Shown: piece by piece, positions 7,984-22,749 of the stretch
How positions within the stretch are numbered: the stretch's first letter is position 1
Layout of the letters: each line of letters begins with the position of its first letter
Source: an uncultured Porphyromonadaceae bacterium
GTDB lineage: Bacteria; Bacteroidota; Bacteroidia; Bacteroidales; UBA12481
Length of the DNA: 40,124 nucleotides
Direction: 5' to 3'
Assembly (NCBI GenBank): GCA_964457845.1
Contig: CAYWHP010000007.1
Location: 1,349-41,472 of the forward strand
Notes under the pieces: generated by a model
Database searches by the model: none
The model's input: the letters and a program-made list of their open reading frames with translations, nothing else
What the model was told of the DNA's origin: nothing
Position numbers and translations under genes: made by a program

Positions 7984-8766
7984 ATGGATATCAACGATAT
8001 TATCAAACCGGAGAACCTGGTTTATCGGAAAACCCCGCTGATGACCGATAAGCCCCTGAGCTATTGCCCGGGCTGCGGCCATGGAACGGCCCACCGGATA
8101 CTTATGGAGGTGATCGAGGAGATGGGGATTCAGTCGGATACAATCGGGGTTGCCCCGGTTGGCTGTTCGGTGCTGGCGTATGATTTCATGAATGTGGATA
8201 TGGTTGGAGCGTCACACGGAAGGGCACCGGCTGTGGCCACCGGTATCAAGCGCTGCTGGCCCGACAAGTTCGTTTATACCTATCAGGGAGACGGCGACCT
8301 GGCGGCGATCGGAACAGCTGAAACCATTCATGCATGCAACCGCGGCGAGAACATTACCATTATTTTCATCAATAACGGGATTTATGGTATGACAGGCGGC
8401 CAGATGGCCCCAACCACGCTCAGTGGCATGAAGACTTCCACCAGCCCGTATGGCCGCGACATTGAAACCATGGGCAATCCCCTGAAGATCACCGAGCTGG
8501 TTGCCCAGTTGCCCGGTACATGTTATGTAACCCGGCAGTCGGTTCATTCCCCGCGAAATGTACGGCGGGCAAAGAAAGCTATCCGTACCGCCTTCGAATC
8601 TCAAAAAGAAAAGAAAGGGCTTTCCCTTGTGGAAATCGTTTCTAACTGCAATTCGGGATGGAAGCTCGAACCGGTGGCTTCCAACGAATGGATGGTAGAG
8701 AACATGTTTCCATATTACCCGCTGGGTGATATTAAAGTTGATGGTAAACTGGTTGTTAATCAATAA
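7984..8766 (+). CDS. 2-oxoacid:ferredoxin oxidoreductase TPP-binding beta subunit
   Basis: YCPGCGHG, PVGCS, HGRA, GDGD...NNGIYGMTGGQ (TPP motif). Confidence 0.92.
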   Translation: MDINDIIKPENLVYRKTPLMTDKPLSYCPGCGHGTAHRILMEVIEEMGIQSDTIGVAPVGCSVLAYDFMNVDMVGASHGRAPAVATGIKRCWPDKFVYTYQGDGDLAAIGTAETIHACNRGENITIIFINNGIYGMTGGQMAPTTLSGMKTSTSPYGRDIETMGNPLKITELVAQLPGTCYVTRQSVHSPRNVRRAKKAIRTAFESQKEKKGLSLVEIVSNCNSGWKLEPVASNEWMVENMFPYYPLGDIKVDGKLVVNQ

Positions 8767-8776
8767 TTTAAAGACC

Positions 8777-9325
8777 ATGACTGAAGAGATTATCATAGCC
8801 GGTTTCGGGGGGCAGGGAGTGCTTTCGATGGGCAAGATTTTAGCGTATTCGGCCATTATGCAGAACCAGGAAGTAAGCTGGTTCCCTTCTTATGGACCCG
8901 AAATGCGCGGTGGAACAGCCAATGTTACCGTTATCCTGAGCGATGAGCGGATCAGTTCGCCAGTACTTCATTTGTATGATACAGCGATTTTGCTGAATCA
9001 GCAGTCGCTCGACAAATTCGAGGGTTCGGTTAAACCGGGCGGTTTGCTGTTGTTCGACCCGAATGGCCTGACGAGGCTGCCGGAACGGAAGGATATCCGC
9101 GTATATAAGGTGGAGGCCGCCGATGCATCCGGTAAAATGGAATCGACGAAAGCCTTCAACATGGTGGTTCTGGGTGCCTATTTAAAGATAAAGCCTGTTG
9201 TAAGCCTTGAAAATGTTTACAGGGGACTCGAAAAATCAATACCGGCACGTTACGGTCATCTGCTGCAGCTTAATAAGGTTGCGATTGACAAGGGGCAAGA
9301 GATTGTTGAGGAGTATAAAGGTTAG
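8777..9325 (+). CDS. 2-oxoacid:ferredoxin oxidoreductase gamma subunit
   Basis: IIIAGFGGQGV, SYGPEMRGG, NMVVLGA. Start at MTEE (ATG 8777). Confidence 0.92.
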   Translation: MTEEIIIAGFGGQGVLSMGKILAYSAIMQNQEVSWFPSYGPEMRGGTANVTVILSDERISSPVLHLYDTAILLNQQSLDKFEGSVKPGGLLLFDPNGLTRLPERKDIRVYKVEAADASGKMESTKAFNMVVLGAYLKIKPVVSLENVYRGLEKSIPARYGHLLQLNKVAIDKGQEIVEEYKG

Positions 9326-9339
9326 GAGGTTACCCTTAC

Positions 9340-9367
9340 CGTCACTCGTCACTCGTCACTCGTCACT
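9340..9367. repeat. Heptamer tandem repeat (CGTCACT)x4
   Basis: Four perfect copies read directly, in the 44-bp gap between convergent genes. Confidence 0.95.
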
Positions 9368-9369
9368 CT

Positions 9370-10182
9370 TTATTCCAAAAAGGAATTCTTCTTGTGCATA
9401 TTATACAGGTACCGGTTTAGCAGGCCGGGAAAAAACTTTCCAAGGTAAATCCCTGCGATCTCGAATCCGCCATAGGTTATTTCCGCTTTATTCCGATGGA
9501 CCGCGTTCACCATTTTTTCTGCTAATTTCTCAGGTGCGATACCCTGCGCCTGCTTACGGCTCATTTTATTGAAACGCTGGCCGGACGGGGTAATGGCGTT
9601 AACCGAAACCTGCGTTTTAATGTAACCTGCACACACGATGGTTACCTTAATTCCATCGTCGGCCACTTCCTGGCGCATCGAATCGAAGAACCCATGCAGG
9701 GCATGCTTTGCAGCAGAGTAGGCCGACCGCTGCGGGGTGCCGATTTTACCCACAACGCTCGATGTTACCACAATATGTCCGGTTTTGCGGCTGGCCATGT
9801 GGGGCAGCACCGCTTTGGTAAGGGCCACCACGCTGAAGTAATCGAGATCCATCACCTTTTTGTCGATATCGATTGATGACTCCATCGCAAGCGCCCGGCT
9901 TGATATTCCCGCATTGTTAAAAAGGATATCAACTTTTCCAAACCTGGCTATCACTTTGTCAGTAAGGGCTTTTGCATTTTCGTACTGATACAGGTCGGCC
10001 GGCAGGATCATAATCGATTCGGCAGGAAGCCTGGTGAGGGTGGCAACACGTTTCAGCTCCTCCTCTCGCCTGGCCGTAAGTACAAGCCGGGCACCTTCCT
10101 GTGCGCAAACCATGGCCAGCGCCTCTCCGATTCCGGATGATGCACCTGTGATCCAGACGATTTTATCCTTGAGTGATTTCAT
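9370..10182 (-). CDS. Classical SDR oxidoreductase (DHRS7-like)
   Basis: WITGASSGIG, NNAG, catalytic YSAAK. Start chosen at MKSLKDK (10182). Confidence 0.9.
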   Translation of the reverse strand: MKSLKDKIVWITGASSGIGEALAMVCAQEGARLVLTARREEELKRVATLTRLPAESIMILPADLYQYENAKALTDKVIARFGKVDILFNNAGISSRALAMESSIDIDKKVMDLDYFSVVALTKAVLPHMASRKTGHIVVTSSVVGKIGTPQRSAYSAAKHALHGFFDSMRQEVADDGIKVTIVCAGYIKTQVSVNAITPSGQRFNKMSRKQAQGIAPEKLAEKMVNAVHRNKAEITYGGFEIAGIYLGKFFPGLLNRYLYNMHKKNSFLE

Positions 10183-10198
10183 CTTTCGATTATTTGCA

Positions 10199-10268
10199 CG
10201 AAAATAGCAATTCATTCCCAAGTATGGTTCAATAACGGTTATTCTGAAGGCCCCTCTTGTTATATTTG
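10199..10268. promoter_or_regulatory. Divergent Bacteroidota -7 boxes for the SDR (-) and VOC (+) genes
   Basis: TATATTTG on + at 10261-10268; near-consensus TATTTTCG on - at 10199-10206. Confidence 0.5.
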
Positions 10269-10292: not shown

Positions 10293-11360
10293 ATGAAAAA
10301 GATCAACGGAATCCAGCAGATAGGCATCGGGGTAAGCAATTTATACGAAGCCTGGAAATGGTACAAGCAAGTGTTTGGGATGGATGTCCGTGTTTTCGAG
10401 GATGATGCTGTGGCGGAGCTAATGCTTCCTTACACCGGAGGGGAGCCCCGCAAGCGGCATGCCGGCCTGGCGGTAAACATGCAGGGTGGAGGAGGGTTTG
10501 AAATCTGGCAGTACAAGGGCAGGATTCCCCAACCCGCGACATTTGCCATTCAGGCGGGTGACGTAGGCATTTATGCCGCCAAGGTCAAGTCAAAGGGAAT
10601 TCATGCCAGCTACAAGCATATTATTGAGGCCGGTGCCGAGGTTCCGGGCGGAATTGTTGCCGGACCCGACGGCCGGGAGCATTTCTTTGTCCGCGATCCT
10701 TTTGGGAACCTTTTTGATGTTGTGGAATCGGGCTCATGGTTTTCCGACGAGAAAAAACACGGAGGCGGAACGTATGGAGCAGTGATCGGGGTAGCTGATA
10801 TTGACAAATCACTGGCGGTTTATTCCGGCATTCTGGGATACGACCAGACGGTATACGATAAATCAGGCGTATTCGCCGACCTGGACAACCTTCCGGGAGG
10901 AAAAGGAAAATTCCGGCGTGTGCTGCTCAGCCATTCTGTGAAACCCACCGGCGGATTTACACGGCTTTTCGGGGAGAGCCGCATCGAGCTCATTCAGTCC
11001 CTTGACCGTAAACCGGAGCGCATATTCCGCGACAGATTGTGGGGCGACCTGGGGTTCATTCATCTCTGCTTTGATATTAACGGGATGTCGGATCTGAAAC
11101 GCGAGTGCGCCGAAAAGGGTTTTCCGTTTACCGTTGACAGTCATGCCAATCTGGGCGAATCCTTCGATATGGGTGAAGCTGCCGGACATTTCAGCTACAT
11201 CGAGGATCCCGACGGAACCCTTTTGGAATTCGTTGAAACCCATAAGGTACCTATCCTGAAGGCATTGGGGATATCGATCGACATGCGCAAAAGGGATCCT
11301 GAAAAAAACCTGCCCGACTGGCTGGTGAGGGGATTACGGTTTAATCGCTTCAAGGGTTGA
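10293..11360 (+). CDS. Two-domain VOC (glyoxalase/bleomycin-resistance/dioxygenase fold) protein
   Basis: IQQIGIGV, FFVRDPFGNLFDVVE and YIEDPDGTLLEFVE VOC motifs, HLCFD. Confidence 0.85.
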   Translation: MKKINGIQQIGIGVSNLYEAWKWYKQVFGMDVRVFEDDAVAELMLPYTGGEPRKRHAGLAVNMQGGGGFEIWQYKGRIPQPATFAIQAGDVGIYAAKVKSKGIHASYKHIIEAGAEVPGGIVAGPDGREHFFVRDPFGNLFDVVESGSWFSDEKKHGGGTYGAVIGVADIDKSLAVYSGILGYDQTVYDKSGVFADLDNLPGGKGKFRRVLLSHSVKPTGGFTRLFGESRIELIQSLDRKPERIFRDRLWGDLGFIHLCFDINGMSDLKRECAEKGFPFTVDSHANLGESFDMGEAAGHFSYIEDPDGTLLEFVETHKVPILKALGISIDMRKRDPEKNLPDWLVRGLRFNRFKG

Positions 11361-12051
11361 CTTCCGGCCCCTGCTTATAAAAATTCATCTCATCAAGGTA
11401 CTTCCATGCCTGTTCGGGCATGAAAAAGCGTACATCTTTCCCGGTTCGAATGGATTCGCGGATAAAGGTGCCGGAAACTTCCATCAGCGGTGCCTTTACC
11501 AGTGTTACCGACTGGTGATCCAGAAGAACGTGACGCGTGACGCGTGACGCGTGATGCGTAAGATCGCCTGAGGGGAATCCTGCGTCAGATTTTGTTTGGG
11601 TTTCCGTGTCACGTGTCACGCGTAACGCGTCACGATCTCCTTCATTGCGCGGATAAACCAATATCCTGTAATCCGCAAGGATCCGGTCGCTCTCCTTCCA
11701 CTCGTGGAATTTCGGAAGCTGGTCCTCACCCATGATAACAGTGAATTCCGTATCCGGGTATTCCCCGGATAGAAAATCAAGCGTATCAATGGTATACGAT
11801 GGTTTTGGCAGCTTAAACTCAACCGAGCTGACGCGGAACTTCGCATAATCCCCCACTGCCCGGATCAGCAGCTCGCGGCGGTGGTAATCGGCAAGGAGCT
11901 CTCCCTCCGGCTTGAAGGGGTTCCTTGGGCTGACCACAAACCACACCTGCCCGAGTCCGCTGAATTCCGCCACATAGTTGGCTATCATCAGGTGCCCGTT
12001 GTGAACCGGATTGAATGATCCGAAATAGAGCCCTACACGTTTACTTTTCAT
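11350..12051 (-). CDS. nadD: Nicotinate-nucleotide adenylyltransferase, with an in-frame repeat-derived insertion
   Basis: GSFNPVHNGH (HxGH), PSYTIDTL, IMGED..F..WK, VSGTFIR; follows gmk in the yicC-gmk-nadD order. Confidence 0.95.
   Translation of the reverse strand: MKSKRVGLYFGSFNPVHNGHLMIANYVAEFSGLGQVWFVVSPRNPFKPEGELLADYHRRELLIRAVGDYAKFRVSSVEFKLPKPSYTIDTLDFLSGEYPDTEFTVIMGEDQLPKFHEWKESDRILADYRILVYPRNEGDRDALRVTRDTETQTKSDAGFPSGDLTHHASRVTRHVLLDHQSVTLVKAPLMEVSGTFIRESIRTGKDVRFFMPEQAWKYLDEMNFYKQGPEVNP
11529..11634. repeat. Inverted pair of heptamer arrays (CGTGACG x3 + CGTGATG ... TGTCACG x2, CGTAACG, CGTCACG) inside nadD
   Basis: Left array 11529-11556 and right array 11607-11634 are approximate reverse complements, separated by a ~50-bp spacer. 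Confidence 0.9.
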
Positions 12052-12610
12052 TGAGGAAATCCCTGATCAGTTTTTCCGCCTCCTCCAGTGCGGTTTCGAG
12101 GCGGTCATTAACGATGATTTTATCGAAACTACTGGCTTTCTCCATCTCGATGAGCGCTTTGCCGAGTCGAAGCTCAATCTTTTCTGCTGAGTCAGTGGCC
12201 CGGTTAACCAATCGCTCCCGGAGTGCCGCCACCGACGGCGGGCTCACAAAAACGGTTAATGCCAGGTCGCCGCATAATCGCTTGATATTCATACCGCCAG
12301 CAACATCCACATCGAACAGGACGGAGTGTCCGTTCGCATGAATCCTGGCAACTTCTGAATTCAGGGTGCCATAAAAGTGGTCGGGATAAACCTCCTCCCA
12401 CTCGAAAAACTCGCCGGCAGCCACCCTTTTCCGGAACTCCTCAATGGTAATGAAGAAGTAATCCACTCCGTCGGTTTCGCCGGGCCGTTTTTCCCTGCTG
12501 CACGCGGTGACCGAAAACTCCAGACCAAGGCCCGCATTAAGCAGATGCCGCGCGATGGTCGTTTTCCCGGCTCCGGACGGCGCGGATAGTACGATGTATT
12601 TATGCGTCAT
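12041..12610 (-). CDS. gmk: Guanylate kinase
   Basis: SAPSGAGKTT P-loop, R.KRPGE.DGVDYFF, EWEEVY...YGT, FDVDV.G. Confidence 0.96.
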   Translation of the reverse strand: MTHKYIVLSAPSGAGKTTIARHLLNAGLGLEFSVTACSREKRPGETDGVDYFFITIEEFRKRVAAGEFFEWEEVYPDHFYGTLNSEVARIHANGHSVLFDVDVAGGMNIKRLCGDLALTVFVSPPSVAALRERLVNRATDSAEKIELRLGKALIEMEKASSFDKIIVNDRLETALEEAEKLIRDFLNEK

Positions 12611-19478: not shown

Positions 19479-20849
19479 TCAGCAGCGGTCGAGCTCAAGA
19501 GTGAAGTGGCGCATGATCGGGGCTTCGGATACTATCCTGTAGCCACGCCTGATCTCCCCGGCCCTGTCGAAGGCGAGTTTAACTGCCGCCGCCGCATATT
19601 CCATGTGGCTTTCTGTATACACCCTCCTCGGGATGGCCAGCCTTACCAGCTCGAGTGCCGGAAACCGGTTTTCACGGGTGACGGGATCACGATCAGCCAT
19701 AAGGGCTCCGATTTCAGCGGAGCGGATGCCACCGGCCTTGTACAGCTCCACCACCAGGGTCTGACCGGGAAACTCCTCCCGGGGGACATTCGGAAGGAAC
19801 CGCAGTGCATCAATAAATACTGCATGGCCGCCGATGGGCAGTTGAACAGGGATGCCAAAGGCATGAAGCCGCTCACCCAATCGTGCAACCTGGGTGATGC
19901 GTGCGTCGAGGTAGGAGAATTCAGTTGCCTCACGAAGCCCTACGGCGAGTGCGGCCATATCCCTTCCGGCCTGTCCACCGTACGTGATGTATCCCTCGAA
20001 CATGATATTGTAAACCGTAGCCTGGTTGTATAATGCTTTGTCTTTCAGAGCAATAAAGCCACCAATATTTACGATGCCATCCTTCTTTGCCGACATGGTC
20101 GCACCATCAAAAAGCGAGAACATCTCAAGGACAATCTCCCGGATAGTTTTATCGGCAAAGCCTGGTTCACGTGTTTTAATGAAGTAGGCGTTCTCAGCAA
20201 AACGGGCGGCATCCATGATCAGAAGCTTTCCGTATTTATCCGCGAGATGCCTGACTGCTTTCATGTTATCCATCGAAACAGGCTGGCCTCCGGCAGTATT
20301 GCAGGTTGCCGTGATCAGAATGAACGAAACGAGGTCACCACCGTTGGAAAGCACCTCTTCGAGCTTCTCCAGGTCAACATTTCCCTTAAACGGATGCAGG
20401 CTGGTGGTATCATCGGCTTCGCTTATCGTACAGTTTACGGCAACAGCCTTACGGAATTCAATGTGCCCCTTGGTGGTATCGAAGTGGGCATTTCCGGGGA
20501 CCAGTTGTCCCTCACTCACCAACACCGAGAATAGAACATTCTCCGCAGCACGACCCTGGTGGGTGGGAAGCAGATAATCAAAACCGGAGAGCTCCCGGAT
20601 GGTCTCTTTCAGTTCGTGGTAGGATCTGGACCCGGCGTAGGACTCATCGCCGGACATGATCGCCGACCACTGCCGGTCGCTCATGGCGCCTGTACCTGAA
20701 TCGGTTAGAAAGTCAATAAAAACCTGTTCGCTTCTTAGATTGAAAACATTGTAGCGGGCTTGCCGGATCCAGGTTTCACGCTCCTCCGGAGTGCTCGGAT
20801 AGAGCGGTTCGATCATCTTGATTTTATATGGTTCGCAGGAAGGTAACAT
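19479..20849 (-). CDS. tnaA: Tryptophanase (tryptophan indole-lyase)
   Basis: Beta-eliminating lyase motifs DFLTDSGT, GDESYAG, THQGRAAE, MSAKKD. Specificity residues FDTT, EIG and RHF are tryptophanase-type; tyrosine phenol-lyase has FTTT, ERG and RFF. Confidence 0.9.
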   Translation of the reverse strand: MLPSCEPYKIKMIEPLYPSTPEERETWIRQARYNVFNLRSEQVFIDFLTDSGTGAMSDRQWSAIMSGDESYAGSRSYHELKETIRELSGFDYLLPTHQGRAAENVLFSVLVSEGQLVPGNAHFDTTKGHIEFRKAVAVNCTISEADDTTSLHPFKGNVDLEKLEEVLSNGGDLVSFILITATCNTAGGQPVSMDNMKAVRHLADKYGKLLIMDAARFAENAYFIKTREPGFADKTIREIVLEMFSLFDGATMSAKKDGIVNIGGFIALKDKALYNQATVYNIMFEGYITYGGQAGRDMAALAVGLREATEFSYLDARITQVARLGERLHAFGIPVQLPIGGHAVFIDALRFLPNVPREEFPGQTLVVELYKAGGIRSAEIGALMADRDPVTRENRFPALELVRLAIPRRVYTESHMEYAAAAVKLAFDRAGEIRRGYRIVSEAPIMRHFTLELDRC

Positions 20850-20890: not shown

Positions 20891-20967
20891 GATACCCGAT
20901 ACCTGATACCTGATACCTGATACCCGATACCCGATACCTGATACCCGATACCCGATACCCGATACCT
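20891..20967. repeat. Heptamer tandem repeat (GATACCY)x11
   Basis: 11 contiguous units, 6 GATACCC and 5 GATACCT, starting 41 nt upstream of the tnaA start. Confidence 0.97.
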
Positions 20968-21053: not shown

Positions 21054-21123
21054 GTAGAGTGCAAATTTCGGAAATAAACCGGACTTGTGTCCAACTTTTA
21101 TCATGAATTGGGGTGTGCTTTTA

Positions 21124-21131
21124 TATTTTTG
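21124..21131 (+). promoter_or_regulatory. -7 promoter box TATTTTTG for the DUF3078 gene
   Basis: Exact TAnnTTTG match 16 nt before ATG 21148. Confidence 0.55.
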
Positions 21132-21147
21132 CACTGTGAAGATCGAG

Positions 21148-22749
21148 ATGAACAGGATATACTACAAATTACTACTCCTTATTTTTATGCTGGGATTGCT
21201 TTCCTTTCCGAAGGCAGTTGCTCAGGTGTCGGATCGAAACGCGCTGGTGCGGGAAGCCCAGAATCTTTCAAAGGATTCACTGATCACACTCCTGCGGGCC
21301 AAGGATTCACTTCTTTCTATCAGGAAGCGCGACTCGATCAATATGGCCAACCTCATTGTAAATCTCGAGTTCAATCGCGATTCTCTCCATTCTGCCCTGA
21401 GCCAATCGATTTATCGGCATAAACTTGACTCTGCCGAACGAATGAGGCGATACCTGAATTTTCGTGAATTCAACAGGAAATCCCGCCAGGGGTTTTATAC
21501 CCCTATCGGTATCATAGATAACGATTCGGTACGAAGCAATGTAAAAGAGGTGGTCGACCTGCTTTTCGAGGACACTGCCTATAACCCGAAGCCCCACCTG
21601 TTGAAGGCATCTGTTGAAAGGCTGCTGAACCACCTTGGAAATGATTCAATCTATTTCCGGATTGTTAATGCCAAAAAGGATACCGTCCCCTTTATCCTGA
21701 AAAAGGACCGTGTAGATTCCACCGCATTTTTCGTGATGAACAGTACCAACGATTCAGCAAGGATCTTTATCAGGAGCCTCGATAAAAACACAATCTACAT
21801 GTGGGTTAACGATGACCTGATGCTGAAGCACCTGCTGAAAAACAAGGGCGAACCCGAAGGAATCGATATCCGGTGGCAGGATCCCGGCAAATTCCGTGTA
21901 GCCAGAAAGCCTTATCCAGTGCCGATTCCCAAATACTGGTACCTTAAAACGCATTTTAGTATGACGTTCAACCAGTATGCCTTTTTGAACTGGGCCAGAG
22001 GGGGGAACACCAACGTGGCACTCAATGCGGATGTTAAGTCATGGGCCAACTATGCCAAGGGCAATATCTCCTGGACCAATTACTTCTGGTTTAATTATGG
22101 TGTACAGAAAGCCGAACTGGTTGAACTGAGGAAGAGTAACGACGTTATAAACGTGATATCGAACCTGTCACATAAGGCGTTCAAGAAATTTGACTACACC
22201 CTCGGATTGACGTATTCGACGCAGGGATTCAGGGGATATGCCTATCCCAATGACTCGGTACCGGTCTCAAAATTCATGGCTCCGGCTGATCTGAAACTTA
22301 AGCTTGGTTTAACCTACAGGCCCAGCCCCAAGCTCACCATCAACATGTCACCTGTCCAGGGGCAGTTCCGGTTTGTACTTGATACGACAATCATTGATCA
22401 AACCAAGTACGGGTTGAAGGCCGATCAGCGGATGAATGCGCAACTTGGAGCATCGGTCACAGTTGACCATAACACCAAGCTGATGAATAACGTCAGCATG
22501 GTCAACCACCTTGAACTCTTCTCAAACTATATCGATCATCCCGAAATGATTAACTTCATATGGCGCATGGATCTGGCATTTAAGATTAACAAGTATTTTT
22601 CCACTACTTTCCATCTTGAATCGGTTTATGATAACCGCATGCTGATTCCCCTTTATGAAATTAAGGATGGCAAGAAAGTTAAGGTGGGCGAGGGAAAGAG
22701 GATTCAGTTCTATGAATTTCTGGGCCTCACATTTATCTACTACCTATAA
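21148..22749 (+). CDS. DUF3078-type outer-membrane beta-barrel protein with long N-terminal extension
   Basis: Signal peptide; C-terminal half has FNQ..F.NWARGG, RKSND, TQ...GY.YPND...SKFMAP, NHLELFSNY, INKYFST and terminal LGLTFIYYL. Confidence 0.8.
   Translation: MNRIYYKLLLLIFMLGLLSFPKAVAQVSDRNALVREAQNLSKDSLITLLRAKDSLLSIRKRDSINMANLIVNLEFNRDSLHSALSQSIYRHKLDSAERMRRYLNFREFNRKSRQGFYTPIGIIDNDSVRSNVKEVVDLLFEDTAYNPKPHLLKASVERLLNHLGNDSIYFRIVNAKKDTVPFILKKDRVDSTAFFVMNSTNDSARIFIRSLDKNTIYMWVNDDLMLKHLLKNKGEPEGIDIRWQDPGKFRVARKPYPVPIPKYWYLKTHFSMTFNQYAFLNWARGGNTNVALNADVKSWANYAKGNISWTNYFWFNYGVQKAELVELRKSNDVINVISNLSHKAFKKFDYTLGLTYSTQGFRGYAYPNDSVPVSKFMAPADLKLKLGLTYRPSPKLTINMSPVQGQFRFVLDTTIIDQTKYGLKADQRMNAQLGASVTVDHNTKLMNNVSMVNHLELFSNYIDHPEMINFIWRMDLAFKINKYFSTTFHLESVYDNRMLIPLYEIKDGKKVKVGEGKRIQFYEFLGLTFIYYL

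Follow-up and report, generated by a model that had tools for sequence, protein, structure and literature searches.

A hairpin-forming pair of heptamer arrays in frame within nadD of an uncultured Bacteroidota bacterium, and its dispersed repeat family

In a lake bacterium, the nadD gene contains a pair of 7-base tandem-repeat arrays that can form a hairpin; the pair is one among hundreds of such elements dispersed genome-wide. The nadD element resembles the STRR-like heptamer repeats and is inserted in frame in the manner of Rickettsia palindromic elements (RPEs). We consider it probable that the element is a cargo-less hairpin member of the genome's dominant dispersed family, tolerated as a surface excursion of the NadD protein.

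The element and its host gene

The window (the whole stretch of DNA analysed, 40,124 nucleotides) holds the following features of interest.

11350..12051, minus strand: nadD (nicotinate-nucleotide adenylyltransferase), 233 aa; Pfam PF01467, E 3.1e-15
11522..11641, no strand assigned: whole inverted-repeat element, 120 nt, with 40-nt arms that are 83% complementary
11529..11559, plus strand: left array, (CGTGACG) x4.4; Tandem Repeats Finder period 7, 95% matches
11560..11607, no strand assigned: spacer, 48 nt; peptide ETQTKSDAGFPSGDLT
11608..11634, plus strand: right array, GTCACGC-type, x3.9; Tandem Repeats Finder period 7, 85% matches

A first-pass annotation, made from the letters alone, described inverted 7-nt arrays around a unique spacer of about 50 bp, in frame in nadD. 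Tandem Repeats Finder and the open reading frame at 11350-12051 both recover this arrangement: head-to-tail units number more than three on each side (4.4 and 3.9 copies), and the frame runs uninterrupted across the element with the peptide as first quoted. The proposed extent of about 106 bp fits the arrays; the inverted repeat itself is longer (120 nt), and its 40-nt arms, 11522-11561 and 11602-11641, stand 40 nt apart. The flanks are linker-like, similar to the GGAAGAAT / ATTCTTCC linker of the heptamer family. The spacer is single-copy, returning only itself in a blastn search of the whole genome. Folded as mRNA, the element reaches -60.2 kcal/mol (z -6.66), a value that 0 of 200 shuffles equalled; folded as single-stranded DNA, its z is -5.66.

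The identity of the host protein was judged by an N-terminal GxFxPxHxGH and a C-terminal ISSxxxR motif. GSFNPVHNGH and EVSGTFIR occupy invariant alignment columns, as expected for the cytidylyltransferase-like fold and for NadD. The 233-aa protein matches Bacillus subtilis NadD (1kam, E 2.5e-27), with only residues 3-126 and 185-226 aligned, and also matches PDB NadD chain 1k4k; the insert separates the two aligned blocks. This is the sole NadD-like gene found in the genome with this query, which otherwise matched only a repeat array translated within tsaD.

The element occupies a 40-residue loop that follows the β-strand ending in YPR. On the coding (minus) strand, the left array has the stop-free CGTCACG orientation and specifies HHASRVTRH (NadD residues 166-174). 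The right array has the CGTGACG orientation, for which TGA is expected in every frame; in nadD, TTA stands at the in-frame TGA position and the peptide reads RDALRVTRDT (residues 140-149). The structure prediction proposed at first pass was run with AlphaFold2, giving pLDDT >90 for the core and <50 for residues 141-169. The 40-residue loop is predicted to be disordered and, judging from the intact frame, is presumably translated; RDALRVTRDTETQTK and SDAGFPSGDLTHHASR are NadD stretches within the peptides that span the insert. Metatranscriptome contigs, from the one run with signal, cover nadD at 11819-11969 only; the others consist of repeat arms shared by many loci.

It is hardly credible that a repeat-induced misjoin placed an intergenic element into nadD. 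The genome is a metagenome assembly in 299 contigs, and short-read contigs end within the left arm. The first-pass annotation had itself allowed for an assembly artefact. However, contigs of three further public metagenome runs, which stem from separate studies in different years, join part of the left arm, the spacer, and the right arm to downstream nadD: X3 (11530-11871) and X7 (11530-12100) with 0 differences, and X6 (11527-12084) with 6. The element therefore is not an artefact of one assembly. Moreover, the nadD frame is intact, and separately assembled congeners show arrays at the same codon positions. All of the independent contigs break inside the left arm, so its unit count is confirmed by no single one. 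Two joints that skip 50-53 nt (11551 to 11602/11605) were considered as deletion variants and rejected: their 23-nt sides lie within the repeat arms, and they most likely stem from other family copies.

A dispersed family with coding copies and gene cassettes

Period 7 is the commonest tandem-repeat class in this genome, with 508 arrays among 2583 Tandem Repeats Finder rows. These arrays fall into 130 canonical units. The CGTGACG-type unit appears in 146 arrays and, together with the linker motif, at well over 100 loci; the genome scan suggested at first pass thus found inverted heptamer-array units abundant elsewhere. The family's members are built of CGT(G/C)ACG heptamers in tandem, often grouped in modules that a GGAAGAAT-like linker connects, and their layout is (CGTGACG)n - spacer - (CGTCACG)m. 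Where neighbouring arms lie within 500 nt of each other, the G-type precedes the C-type in 17 pairs and follows it in 1; same-unit inverted pairs, counted from Tandem Repeats Finder output, number 30. Among 19 spacers compared, a core is common to those on contigs C127, C73, and C78 only. Elements are mostly intergenic: 64 of 291 lie in long open frames, compared with 2158 of 3000 random intervals, which indicates selection against coding sites.

The likeness to RPEs drawn in the first-pass annotation extends well past nadD. Copies in frame occur in no fewer than five additional housekeeping genes, tsaD, aspS, and ispG among them. The copies lie inside or between the Pfam domains of TsaD, AspRS, IspG, an E2 acyltransferase, and a GltD-like protein, and relatives have TsaD and IspG genes without the inserts. 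The arm peptides RDALxVTRDT and HASRVTRH recur among these copies; the cores differ. Where a CGTGACG arm would place TGA in frame, TTA is found at 8 of 8 sites in six genes (nadD, tsaD, aspS, and those for the E2 acyltransferase, a FAD_binding_2 protein, and a flippase). This purging of stops supports translation, because an element removed from the RNA would need no purging. The all-TTA result is in part expected, because T or A at the centre base is the commonest unit variant family-wide: among 1918 units on both strands, variants at TGA are TTA (44), TAA (48), and other sense changes (21). Given that spectrum, TTA at every site is weaker proof that a "coding-competent" subfamily is propagating, an idea that we set aside.

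The same arms also bracket a gene. Larger versions had been guessed to carry four-helix-bundle cargo, and an S23p/Avd-like gene (PF05635, 123.8 bits) at G000:C36:19974-20285 (G000 being the present genome) indeed is flanked on both sides by the modules seen in nadD. In five congeners, whose assemblies are fragmented, 30 of 48 PF05635 matches were examined, and 26 of these 30 loci have tandem arrays on both sides. No gene class other than PF05635 was found in consistent association with such arms, and it is also the only gene found between identical arms; the genome was searched besides for PF00078 and PF01797. PF05635 is not known to be a transposase. A cassette with the species-typical unit is present in this genome (C36) and in G011 (locus L056), and absent among the loci examined of G007, G010, G012, and G002 (30 of 48 matches). 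The notion of a "master copy", in which the dominant unit is that of the arms of one S23p cassette, fits G000 and G011 only among these loci.

The nadD element is not such a cassette: it has no open reading frame of its own, and its 48-nt spacer belongs to nadD. Because its arms are the same as those of the C36 cassette, it behaves as a derivative that lacks cargo. The idea that a reverse transcriptase or a telomerase-like enzyme synthesises the arrays from a template was dropped for want of support, as PF00078 has no match in this genome, which is 98.4% complete. Our searches of the literature returned nothing connecting PF05635 genes with tandem-repeat arms, and no heptamer arrays in Bacteroidota.

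The loop and its units across the genus

Outside the genus, NadD has 190-196 aa and a loop of 6-7 residues (16 of 16 genomes, compared with 40 in this NadD), in line with the first-pass statement of about 190-200 aa and a short loop. Within the genus, loop length ranges from about 4 to 41 residues (14 genomes), and 8 of 13 congeners have arrays of 7-8-nt units in the same loop, so this genome is not alone in carrying an insertion there. Relatives have either short loops without repeats or long loops with them, so the long, repeat-free loop that would have spoken against the original proposal did not appear. In one congener, G018, the loop is as short as outside the genus. Other congeners are one-armed: G002 and G009 have the right arm alone, and G017 the left. 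The ancestral loop, as seen in G024 of sister genus g4 (locus L021), already holds GGTCACG, coding G-H-E, at the place where the right arm ends.

The inserts of G000 and G007 share their left boundary and the spacer peptide D-x-G-F-P, and so are probably orthologous; the codons of that peptide differ at the third position in 4 of 5 cases, and the differences between their arms are compensated. Despite differing units, a hairpin is retained, with z of -6.4 in G000, -4.6 in G007, and -2.4 in a third species.

Arrays and units were compared locus by locus, by eye, across the 14 genomes. The unit in the nadD loop matches a unit type abundant in the species' own genome, although the species are related and therefore are not independent trials. 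The units are CGTCACG in G000; CTTCACG in G007 (31 genome matches, nearly all C[TC]TCACG); GGTCAC[CT] in G012; [CT]GTCACC in G002 and G009; and a CTAACC(7+8) alternation in G010 (195 genome matches; other G010 loci spell it identically). G011 gives a mixed picture, with GGTCACG/CGTCACG in the nadD arm and mostly GGTCACT among its arrays listed. The aspS array of G018 likewise matches a unit type abundant in the G018 genome, and the tsaD loop has four different unit families in four congeners. This tracking of the genome's own units argues against purely local slippage, and for either array turnover in trans or repeated insertion at the same site.

Origin, rivals, and known relatives

We suggest that the NadD loop was colonised in an ancestor of the genus. 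Later turnover would have gained or lost units, lost an arm, or replaced the unit type, through a process acting in trans: dispersed arrays may have converted one another ectopically, or insertion may have recurred at an array or hairpin already in place. The element would be transcribed and translated with nadD as a probably disordered surface excursion of about 35 residues. Selection on nadD would retain a length that is a multiple of three, and would have removed the in-frame TGA from the CGTGACG arm; the insert itself may be selfish or neutral, rather than useful to NadD. Mobility is a deduction, not an observation, because no enzyme, target-site duplication, or within-species pair of empty and filled sites was found. 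A bolder proposal is possible, although we regard it as doubtful: sequence-specific machinery, encoded by or tied to the S23p/Avd-like cassettes, might act in trans to write and renew the arrays, homing to arrays or hairpins. If so, colonised sites (NadD, TsaD, AspRS) would stay occupied through speciation while their unit is overwritten to that of the current family. This would constitute a new kind of self-renewing mobile repeat, and would provide a function for the orphan PF05635 family.

Conversely, nothing mobile or trans-acting might be involved: the ancestral loop may by chance have contained a heptamer from which replication slippage built one arm, template switching giving the second. 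The single GGTCACG at exactly the right-arm end in L021 is what such a local origin would start from, and the one-armed congeners, the unique spacer, and the missing target-site duplication all agree with it. We nevertheless judge it distinctly unlikely, since unit and linker motif recur at well over 100 loci, and the nadD units match each genome's abundant types, including the unrelated CTAACC 7+8 unit of G010; the four unit families in the tsaD loop tell the same way. The insert could instead be kept because it is useful, either as an mRNA hairpin that tunes nadD expression (by pausing ribosomes or being cut by RNase III) or as a protein loop with its own function. The hairpins kept in three species with different units and the D-x-G-F-P peptide kept between G000 and G007 point in that direction, although five residues shared by two sequences are weak evidence. 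We find this unlikely, given the range of loop lengths in the genus (down to that of G018) and the predicted disorder. The presence of the element in unrelated genes, and far more often in intergenic sites, argues against a role specific to nadD.

Finally, gain or loss of one unit shifts the frame, 7 not being a multiple of 3, and heptamer repeats are reported to cause phase variation in some pathogens. A contingency locus that toggles nadD is nonetheless very improbable: NadD normally is essential, and no second NadD was found with this query. Furthermore, the arrays are short (about 4 units) and imperfect; the same elements reside in tsaD, aspS, and ispG; and the contigs of three other runs contain no length variant, although contigs drop rare variants.

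How does this family relate to known repeats? STRR (short tandemly repeated repetitive) is the name of heptanucleotide repeats of heterocystous cyanobacteria; work on Calothrix heptanucleotides reportedly dates from 1990. The present genome likewise has several unit families with many dispersed copies, mainly intergenic. Rehm et al. (2015, PMC4692102), in the parts of that paper drawn on here, mention the Calothrix heptanucleotides and describe Xanthomonas and Nostoc heptamers, GGGAATC / GGGGA(C/T)T, with 70 and 75 convergent inverted pairs in two Xanthomonas genomes. By the same parts of PMC4692102, the shared features are tandem 7-nt units in hundreds of dispersed copies, mostly intergenic near gene ends, with frequent convergent inverted pairs and some intragenic copies. 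The present family differs in its uncultured Bacteroidota host and its units, which are not G-rich, so the quadruplex idea in PMC4692102 does not apply. Four features go beyond those parts: modules made of a linker plus heptamers, PF05635 genes enclosed by the arms, essential genes with copies in frame, and units that at orthologous loci follow the species' own family.

RPEs (Ogata et al. 2000, as summarised in part in PMC10969869) are palindromic and lie in frame in unrelated housekeeping genes; they are translated, apparently compatible with the fold, and about 150 bp long, with full-length sequence and peptide conserved. By that summary, the nadD element resembles RPEs in its in-frame insertion in many unrelated genes, and differs in that the arms alone are conserved, that they are tandem heptamers around a unique core, and that most copies are intergenic. 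REPINs (Bertels and Rainey 2011, PMC3116915), the REP doublets mobilised by RAYT, fold into a hairpin made of two short repeats in inverted orientation and the spacer between them. In the sections of PMC3116915 consulted, they share with this family hundreds of copies, mostly intergenic, and a hairpin; REPs are single palindromes, whereas the nadD arms are tandem arrays. A RAYT link was rejected: the single Y1_Tnp gene (G000:C190:359-688) is flanked by an unrelated 34-nt perfect inverted repeat. RPEs and the nadD element have no sequence relationship, and the host here belongs to the Bacteroidota, not Rickettsia.

Intervening sequences of 23S rRNA can carry an S23p (PF05635) ORF, and Avd belongs to diversity-generating retroelements. 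Similarly, in this genus a PF05635 gene lies between inverted repeats able to form a long stem; the nadD copy differs in lying within a protein-coding gene, read through and without an ORF. A mechanism like that of diversity-generating retroelements is without support here, because the genome has no PF00078 match. In Nostoc punctiforme, Elhai and colleagues are said to have described in 2008 very small repeats (SDR) that insert in heptamer contexts, occasionally in genes. Such insertion would parallel arrays attracting further arrays; no SDR-type conserved insert of 21-27 nt was identified here. The first-pass label of a MITE-like unit holds for the terminal inverted repeats and small size (40-nt arms, 120 nt), and fails for target-site duplication and shared core. 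Inspection by eye showed no duplication bordering the copies in nadD or tsaD, whose flanks are inverted linker-like motifs, and the spacer is unique in the genome; a classical MITE was rejected on these grounds.

Knowledge of dispersed heptamer repeats goes back to about 1990, and the in-frame nadD element makes this old repeat class easier to study. The nadD loop, part of a conserved enzyme that is easy to assay, is a natural experiment: sister genera lack the insert and most species of this one genus have it, with arrays that follow their own repeat type. A coding frame that records each change is the yardstick against which to measure how fast, and in which direction, the arrays turn over. 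Copies in essential genes must be translated, and so show how much disordered, repeat-encoded peptide enzymes tolerate, while offering peptides for proteomics. The same arms around S23p/Avd-like genes point to a candidate partner protein. For annotation there is a caution: inserts of 30-60 "low-complexity" residues in the housekeeping proteins of such genomes should not be taken for errors, since they are repeat elements.

The nadD element and its loop

The gene nadD of this genome (G000) reads without interruption through two heptamer arrays and the spacer between them.

Features of the nadD locus (window positions; arrays from Tandem Repeats Finder)
11350-12051 (-): nadD open reading frame, 233 aa, reading through the whole element
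11529-11559: left array, period 7, unit CGTGACG, 4.4 copies, 95% matches
11608-11634: right array, period 7, unit GTCACGC, 3.9 copies, 85% matches

The product is NadD (PF01467, E 3.1e-15; Bacillus subtilis NadD 1kam, E 2.5e-27, the alignment being limited to query residues 3-126 and 185-226), and its named relatives are Bacteroidota NadD proteins of at most 46% identity. The two arrays are mutual reverse complements. Complementarity extends past them into arms of 40 nt each (11522-11561 and 11602-11641; 83% complementary, 40 nt between), and the whole is bounded by degenerate linker copies of the family module. Thus the first-pass annotation of inverted heptamer arrays around a spacer, in frame in nadD, is confirmed by Tandem Repeats Finder, by the inverted-repeat search and by the open frame. 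Predicted folding bears out its hairpin as well: as mRNA, 134 nt around the element fold at -60.2 kcal/mol, while 200 dinucleotide shuffles give -36.1 +/- 3.6 (z -6.66; 0/200 as good), and as single-stranded DNA the z-score is -5.66.

An assembly artefact, which that annotation had named as one of the outcomes that would sink it, is contradicted by contigs from three other public lake/freshwater metagenome runs. These reproduce the sequence from the left-arm interior through the spacer and right arm into the remaining nadD: X3 (11530-11871, 0 differences), X7 (11530-12100, 0 differences), and X6 (11527-12084, 6 differences). All three end within the left arm, whose unit count no single independent contig bridges. 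The nadD element is a real feature, and was rightly read.

NadD was located in 38 of 41 related genomes, and 30 returned loci were aligned. Outside the genus the protein has 190-196 aa, and in 16/16 orthologues the stretch separating YPR from the L-x-x-H motif measures 6-7 residues; G000 has 40 (residues 136-175, with arrays and spacer at 140-174). An AlphaFold2 model on the NadD alignment (mean pLDDT 84.5) gives values mostly >90 for the core and <50 for residues 141-169; on this prediction the NadD fold is normal apart from the insert, which would project from it in disordered form. Across the 13 congeners in the genus, the hypervariable loop spans about 4 to 41 residues. The G000 and G007 inserts have a common left boundary (GGAAGAT / CGTGA...) and encode a common spacer peptide, D-x-G-F-P, four of whose five codons differ at the third position. 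This suggests that the two inserts, in proteins of 64% identity, are probably orthologous and old.

A dispersed heptamer family

The G000 assembly (5.24 Mb, 299 contigs, 98.4% complete) is rich in tandem arrays. Period 7 is the largest class, with 508 of 2583 Tandem Repeats Finder rows, followed by period 9 (404) and period 8 (258). The 508 arrays reduce to 130 canonical units: the nadD unit recurs in 146 arrays, and the next families in 33, 22, 21, and 18. Among 131 neighbouring array pairs at most 400 nt apart, a shared unit is inverted in 30 and direct in 6, so that the genome scan suggested with the annotation does find inverted-array units like that of nadD elsewhere. A strict in-phase scan found 156 CGT(G/C)ACG-type arms, with 17 'G then C' pairs and one 'C then G' among neighbours within 500 nt; this is an undercount, since the degenerate right arm of nadD, for one, goes undetected. 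The unit is palindromic except for its central base, and the two arms therefore differ at one position in seven. Examples reveal a higher-order module, often repeated: three to four heptamers plus a linker (GGAAGAAT left, ATTCTTCC right).

Spacers are mostly unique. The label MITE-like fails for the nadD element, at which no target-site duplication was seen by eye and which lacks a conserved core (its spacer occurs once in the genome). A common core occurs in three of 19 compared spacers, at C127:4581-4973, C73:4232-4650, and C78:3843-4138 (contigs of G000), where CGTGACG-family arms bracket GCCCCGTAGGGGCG... This core is roughly 170 nt, strongly palindromic and non-coding, with copies 74-89% identical; it could represent a structured RNA, or a small element that is nested here.

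Other arrays were noted in passing. In the window, a single (CGTCACT) x4.1 array at 9340-9368, a variant of the CGT(G/C)ACG family with no inverted partner nearby, lies where convergent ORFs 8726-9325 (+) and 9370-10221 (-) leave 44 nt between them. GATACC(C/T) x10.9 lies at 20891-20966, between divergent ORFs 19479-20849 (-) and 21085-22749 (+). Units differ in 95 of the 131 neighbouring pairs, which is, by impression, far above what we would expect and fits the idea that arrays attract further arrays.

Only one gene class, PF05635 (S23p, the Avd-like protein of 23S rRNA intervening sequences), is consistently linked with arms of the heptamer type. Four such genes in G000 score above the curated cut-off, and a fifth match is weak. 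A check for larger versions with a four-helix-bundle gene had been suggested, and one is present: the gene at C36:19974-20285 has CGTGACG modules to its left (19793-19886) and CGTCACG modules to its right (20318-20458), the family of nadD. The C152 and C258 genes have arms of other heptamer families (at C152, GATACC(C/T)), and the C98 gene is bracketed by 22-nt repeats. Five congeners hold 48 PF05635 matches; at 26 of 30 loci examined, tandem arrays (periods 6-24) occupy both sides, whose complementarity was judged by eye from consensus units only. The other four comprise two cut by a contig end, one with an array on one side only, and one with none. One type, that of the C98 gene (C98:6368-6661) and of C36:21560-21842, sits between inverted tandem repeats whose units measure 21-24 nt (AATTAGCGAGCGCAGCGAGCA-like) rather than heptamers; similar units recur around PF05635 in loci L084 (G002) and L078 (G007).

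In-frame copies and evidence for their translation

Merging arrays of three or more copies that lie within 200 nt of one another turns 384 arrays into 291 heptamer elements. Of these, 64 are enclosed in an open frame that continues for 50 codons or more to either side, compared with 2158 of 3000 random intervals. The family is therefore depleted from coding sequence about three-fold, not excluded. Pfam searches covered 20 of 68 open-frame spans, picked for CGTGACG-type or long arrays.

In-frame arrays in other G000 genes
TsaD: PF00814 split in two stretches
AspRS: before the GAD domain
IspG/GcpE: inside
E2 acyltransferase: linker
GltD-like protein: between domains
Flavoprotein: after the FAD-binding domain
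MurJ-like flippase
M1 and M3 peptidases
Two AP_endonuc_2 paralogues: same position

The proposed analogy to Rickettsia palindromic elements is upheld by these housekeeping genes; as PMC10969869 outlines those elements, in-frame spread works alike in G000. The AP_endonuc_2 paralogues (xylose-isomerase-like TIM barrel; L054, C59:21262-22506, and L055, C270:220-1437) carry different units, AAGACAG x7 and TCTCATG x6, at about residues 258-279.

The tsaD insert, a CGTGACG element of 57 residues (137-193), is absent in G007, G011, G018, G020, and G025; in the three genomes that were compared, 6-9 nt separate the two flanking matches. The loop is nonetheless filled in three congeners, by a different unit family in each: CCGTCAN in G007 (L110), AACCGAC in G018 (L111), and inverted GACCGCA / GTCCGCC in G011 (L112). 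It is empty in two outgroups. Sites thus stay occupied through unit-family change. The ispG insert is absent in G018. In G000 and G018, AspRS exceeds the length found in three others by about 16-20 residues.

It follows from the sequences themselves that (CGTGACG)n puts a TGA in every frame, whereas (CGTCACG)n is open in each. Inverted pairs occur in six genes: nadD, tsaD, aspS, and those for the E2, flavoprotein and flippase. In all six, the in-frame TGA positions of the CGTGACG arm read TTA (8/8 modules), giving a recurring peptide, RDAL(R/S/H)VTRDT; the other arm gives HASRVTRH. This is evidence that the element is translated, because stops would not have to be purged if it were cut out of the RNA. 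That TTA is used throughout is in part to be expected, since T or A at the centre base is the most frequent unit variant across the family (changes of TGA among 1918 units, both strands: TTA 44, TAA 48, all other sense changes 21).

Probable unit turnover and a proposed origin of the insert

Pattern searches show the nadD units of each species to be of a type abundant across its own genome.

Genome-wide units and nadD loops, G000 and the 13 congeners (8 of these congeners with recognisable tandem 7-nt or 7+8-nt units)
G000: [CT]GTCACG; nadD CGTCACG
G007: C[TC]TCACG (31 hits of a TCAC-period pattern, nearly all so spelled; GTCAC pattern only 2 hits); nadD both arms, (CTTCACG)x4
G011: mixed, listed arrays mostly GGTCACT, some CGTCACG; nadD both arms, GGTCACG/CGTCACG
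G012: GGTCAC[CT]; nadD both arms, GGTCACC/T x4
G002: [CTA]GTCACC, 149 hits; nadD right arm only, CGTCACC, CGTCACC, TGTCACC
G009: same type as G002; nadD right arm only, GTCACC-type
G017: nadD left arm only
G010: CTAACC arrays, 195 hits, identical 7+8 alternation CTAACCTTCTAACCC at other loci; nadD CTAACC-type, CTAACCTTCTAACCC alternation x4
G008: nadD CTAACC-type
G016, G006, G013, G004: longer nadD loops without clear arrays
G018: arrays genome-wide, none in nadD (outside-genus length); aspS array spelled with its own unit

Because the species are related, this match describes a pattern and does not amount to a statistical test. The nadD mRNA hairpin is retained by G000 (z -6.4), by G007 (z -4.6) and in weaker form by G011 (z -2.4); changes in the G007 arms compensate each other, CGTGAAG/CGTGAGG pairing with CTTCACG. 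Single-locus drift would not converge on the spelling of dozens of other loci, which argues for either sequence exchange in trans among arrays or repeated insertion of current-family elements at a colonised site.

We lean toward a model in which a CGT(G/C)ACG-family hairpin element without cargo colonised the NadD surface loop in the ancestor of the genus. From then on the insert would have persisted as a translated passenger that the enzyme tolerates; its arrays would keep pace with the genome-wide family as they turn over, and selection on the nadD frame would screen the results. Purely local slippage from a seed heptamer gains from the GGTCACG found at the right place in one sister-genus orthologue, but leaves the match to each species' genome-wide units unexplained. 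A hairpin or loop that is itself useful would account for the conservation of both hairpin and DxGFP in two or three species; against this, the loop is highly variable, and in G018 it is not expanded. Phase variation is unlikely: NadD is normally essential, and its gene is single-copy (this NadD query found no second one in G000).

No enzyme that would make or move arrays was found among the candidates considered, reverse transcriptase (none in G000) and RAYT-like (REP-associated) Y1 transposase. The single Y1_Tnp gene (PF01797, RAYT or IS200-like; C190:359-688, L115) is flanked by repeats unrelated to the heptamers: a perfect 34-nt inverted repeat (L115 212-245 / 783-816) containing its own small hairpin, and 46-, 23-, and 26-nt tandem repeats. 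A RAYT/REPIN origin was therefore rejected; unlike REPIN systems, G000 has a RAYT without matching repeats.

The closest relatives are STRR and the Xanthomonas heptamers, repeats of the same kind. Where Rehm et al. (2015, PMC4692102) describe the latter, over-represented heptamers form 70 and 75 convergent pairs in two genomes, some copies are intragenic, and no function is known. Our literature search found nothing linking PF05635 genes to tandem-repeat arms, nor on heptamer arrays in Bacteroidota. The nadD element belongs, then, to a known but unexplained kind of repeat. New here are the species-by-species match between the units of an orthologous coding locus and those genome-wide, and the persistence of occupied sites through changes of unit family.
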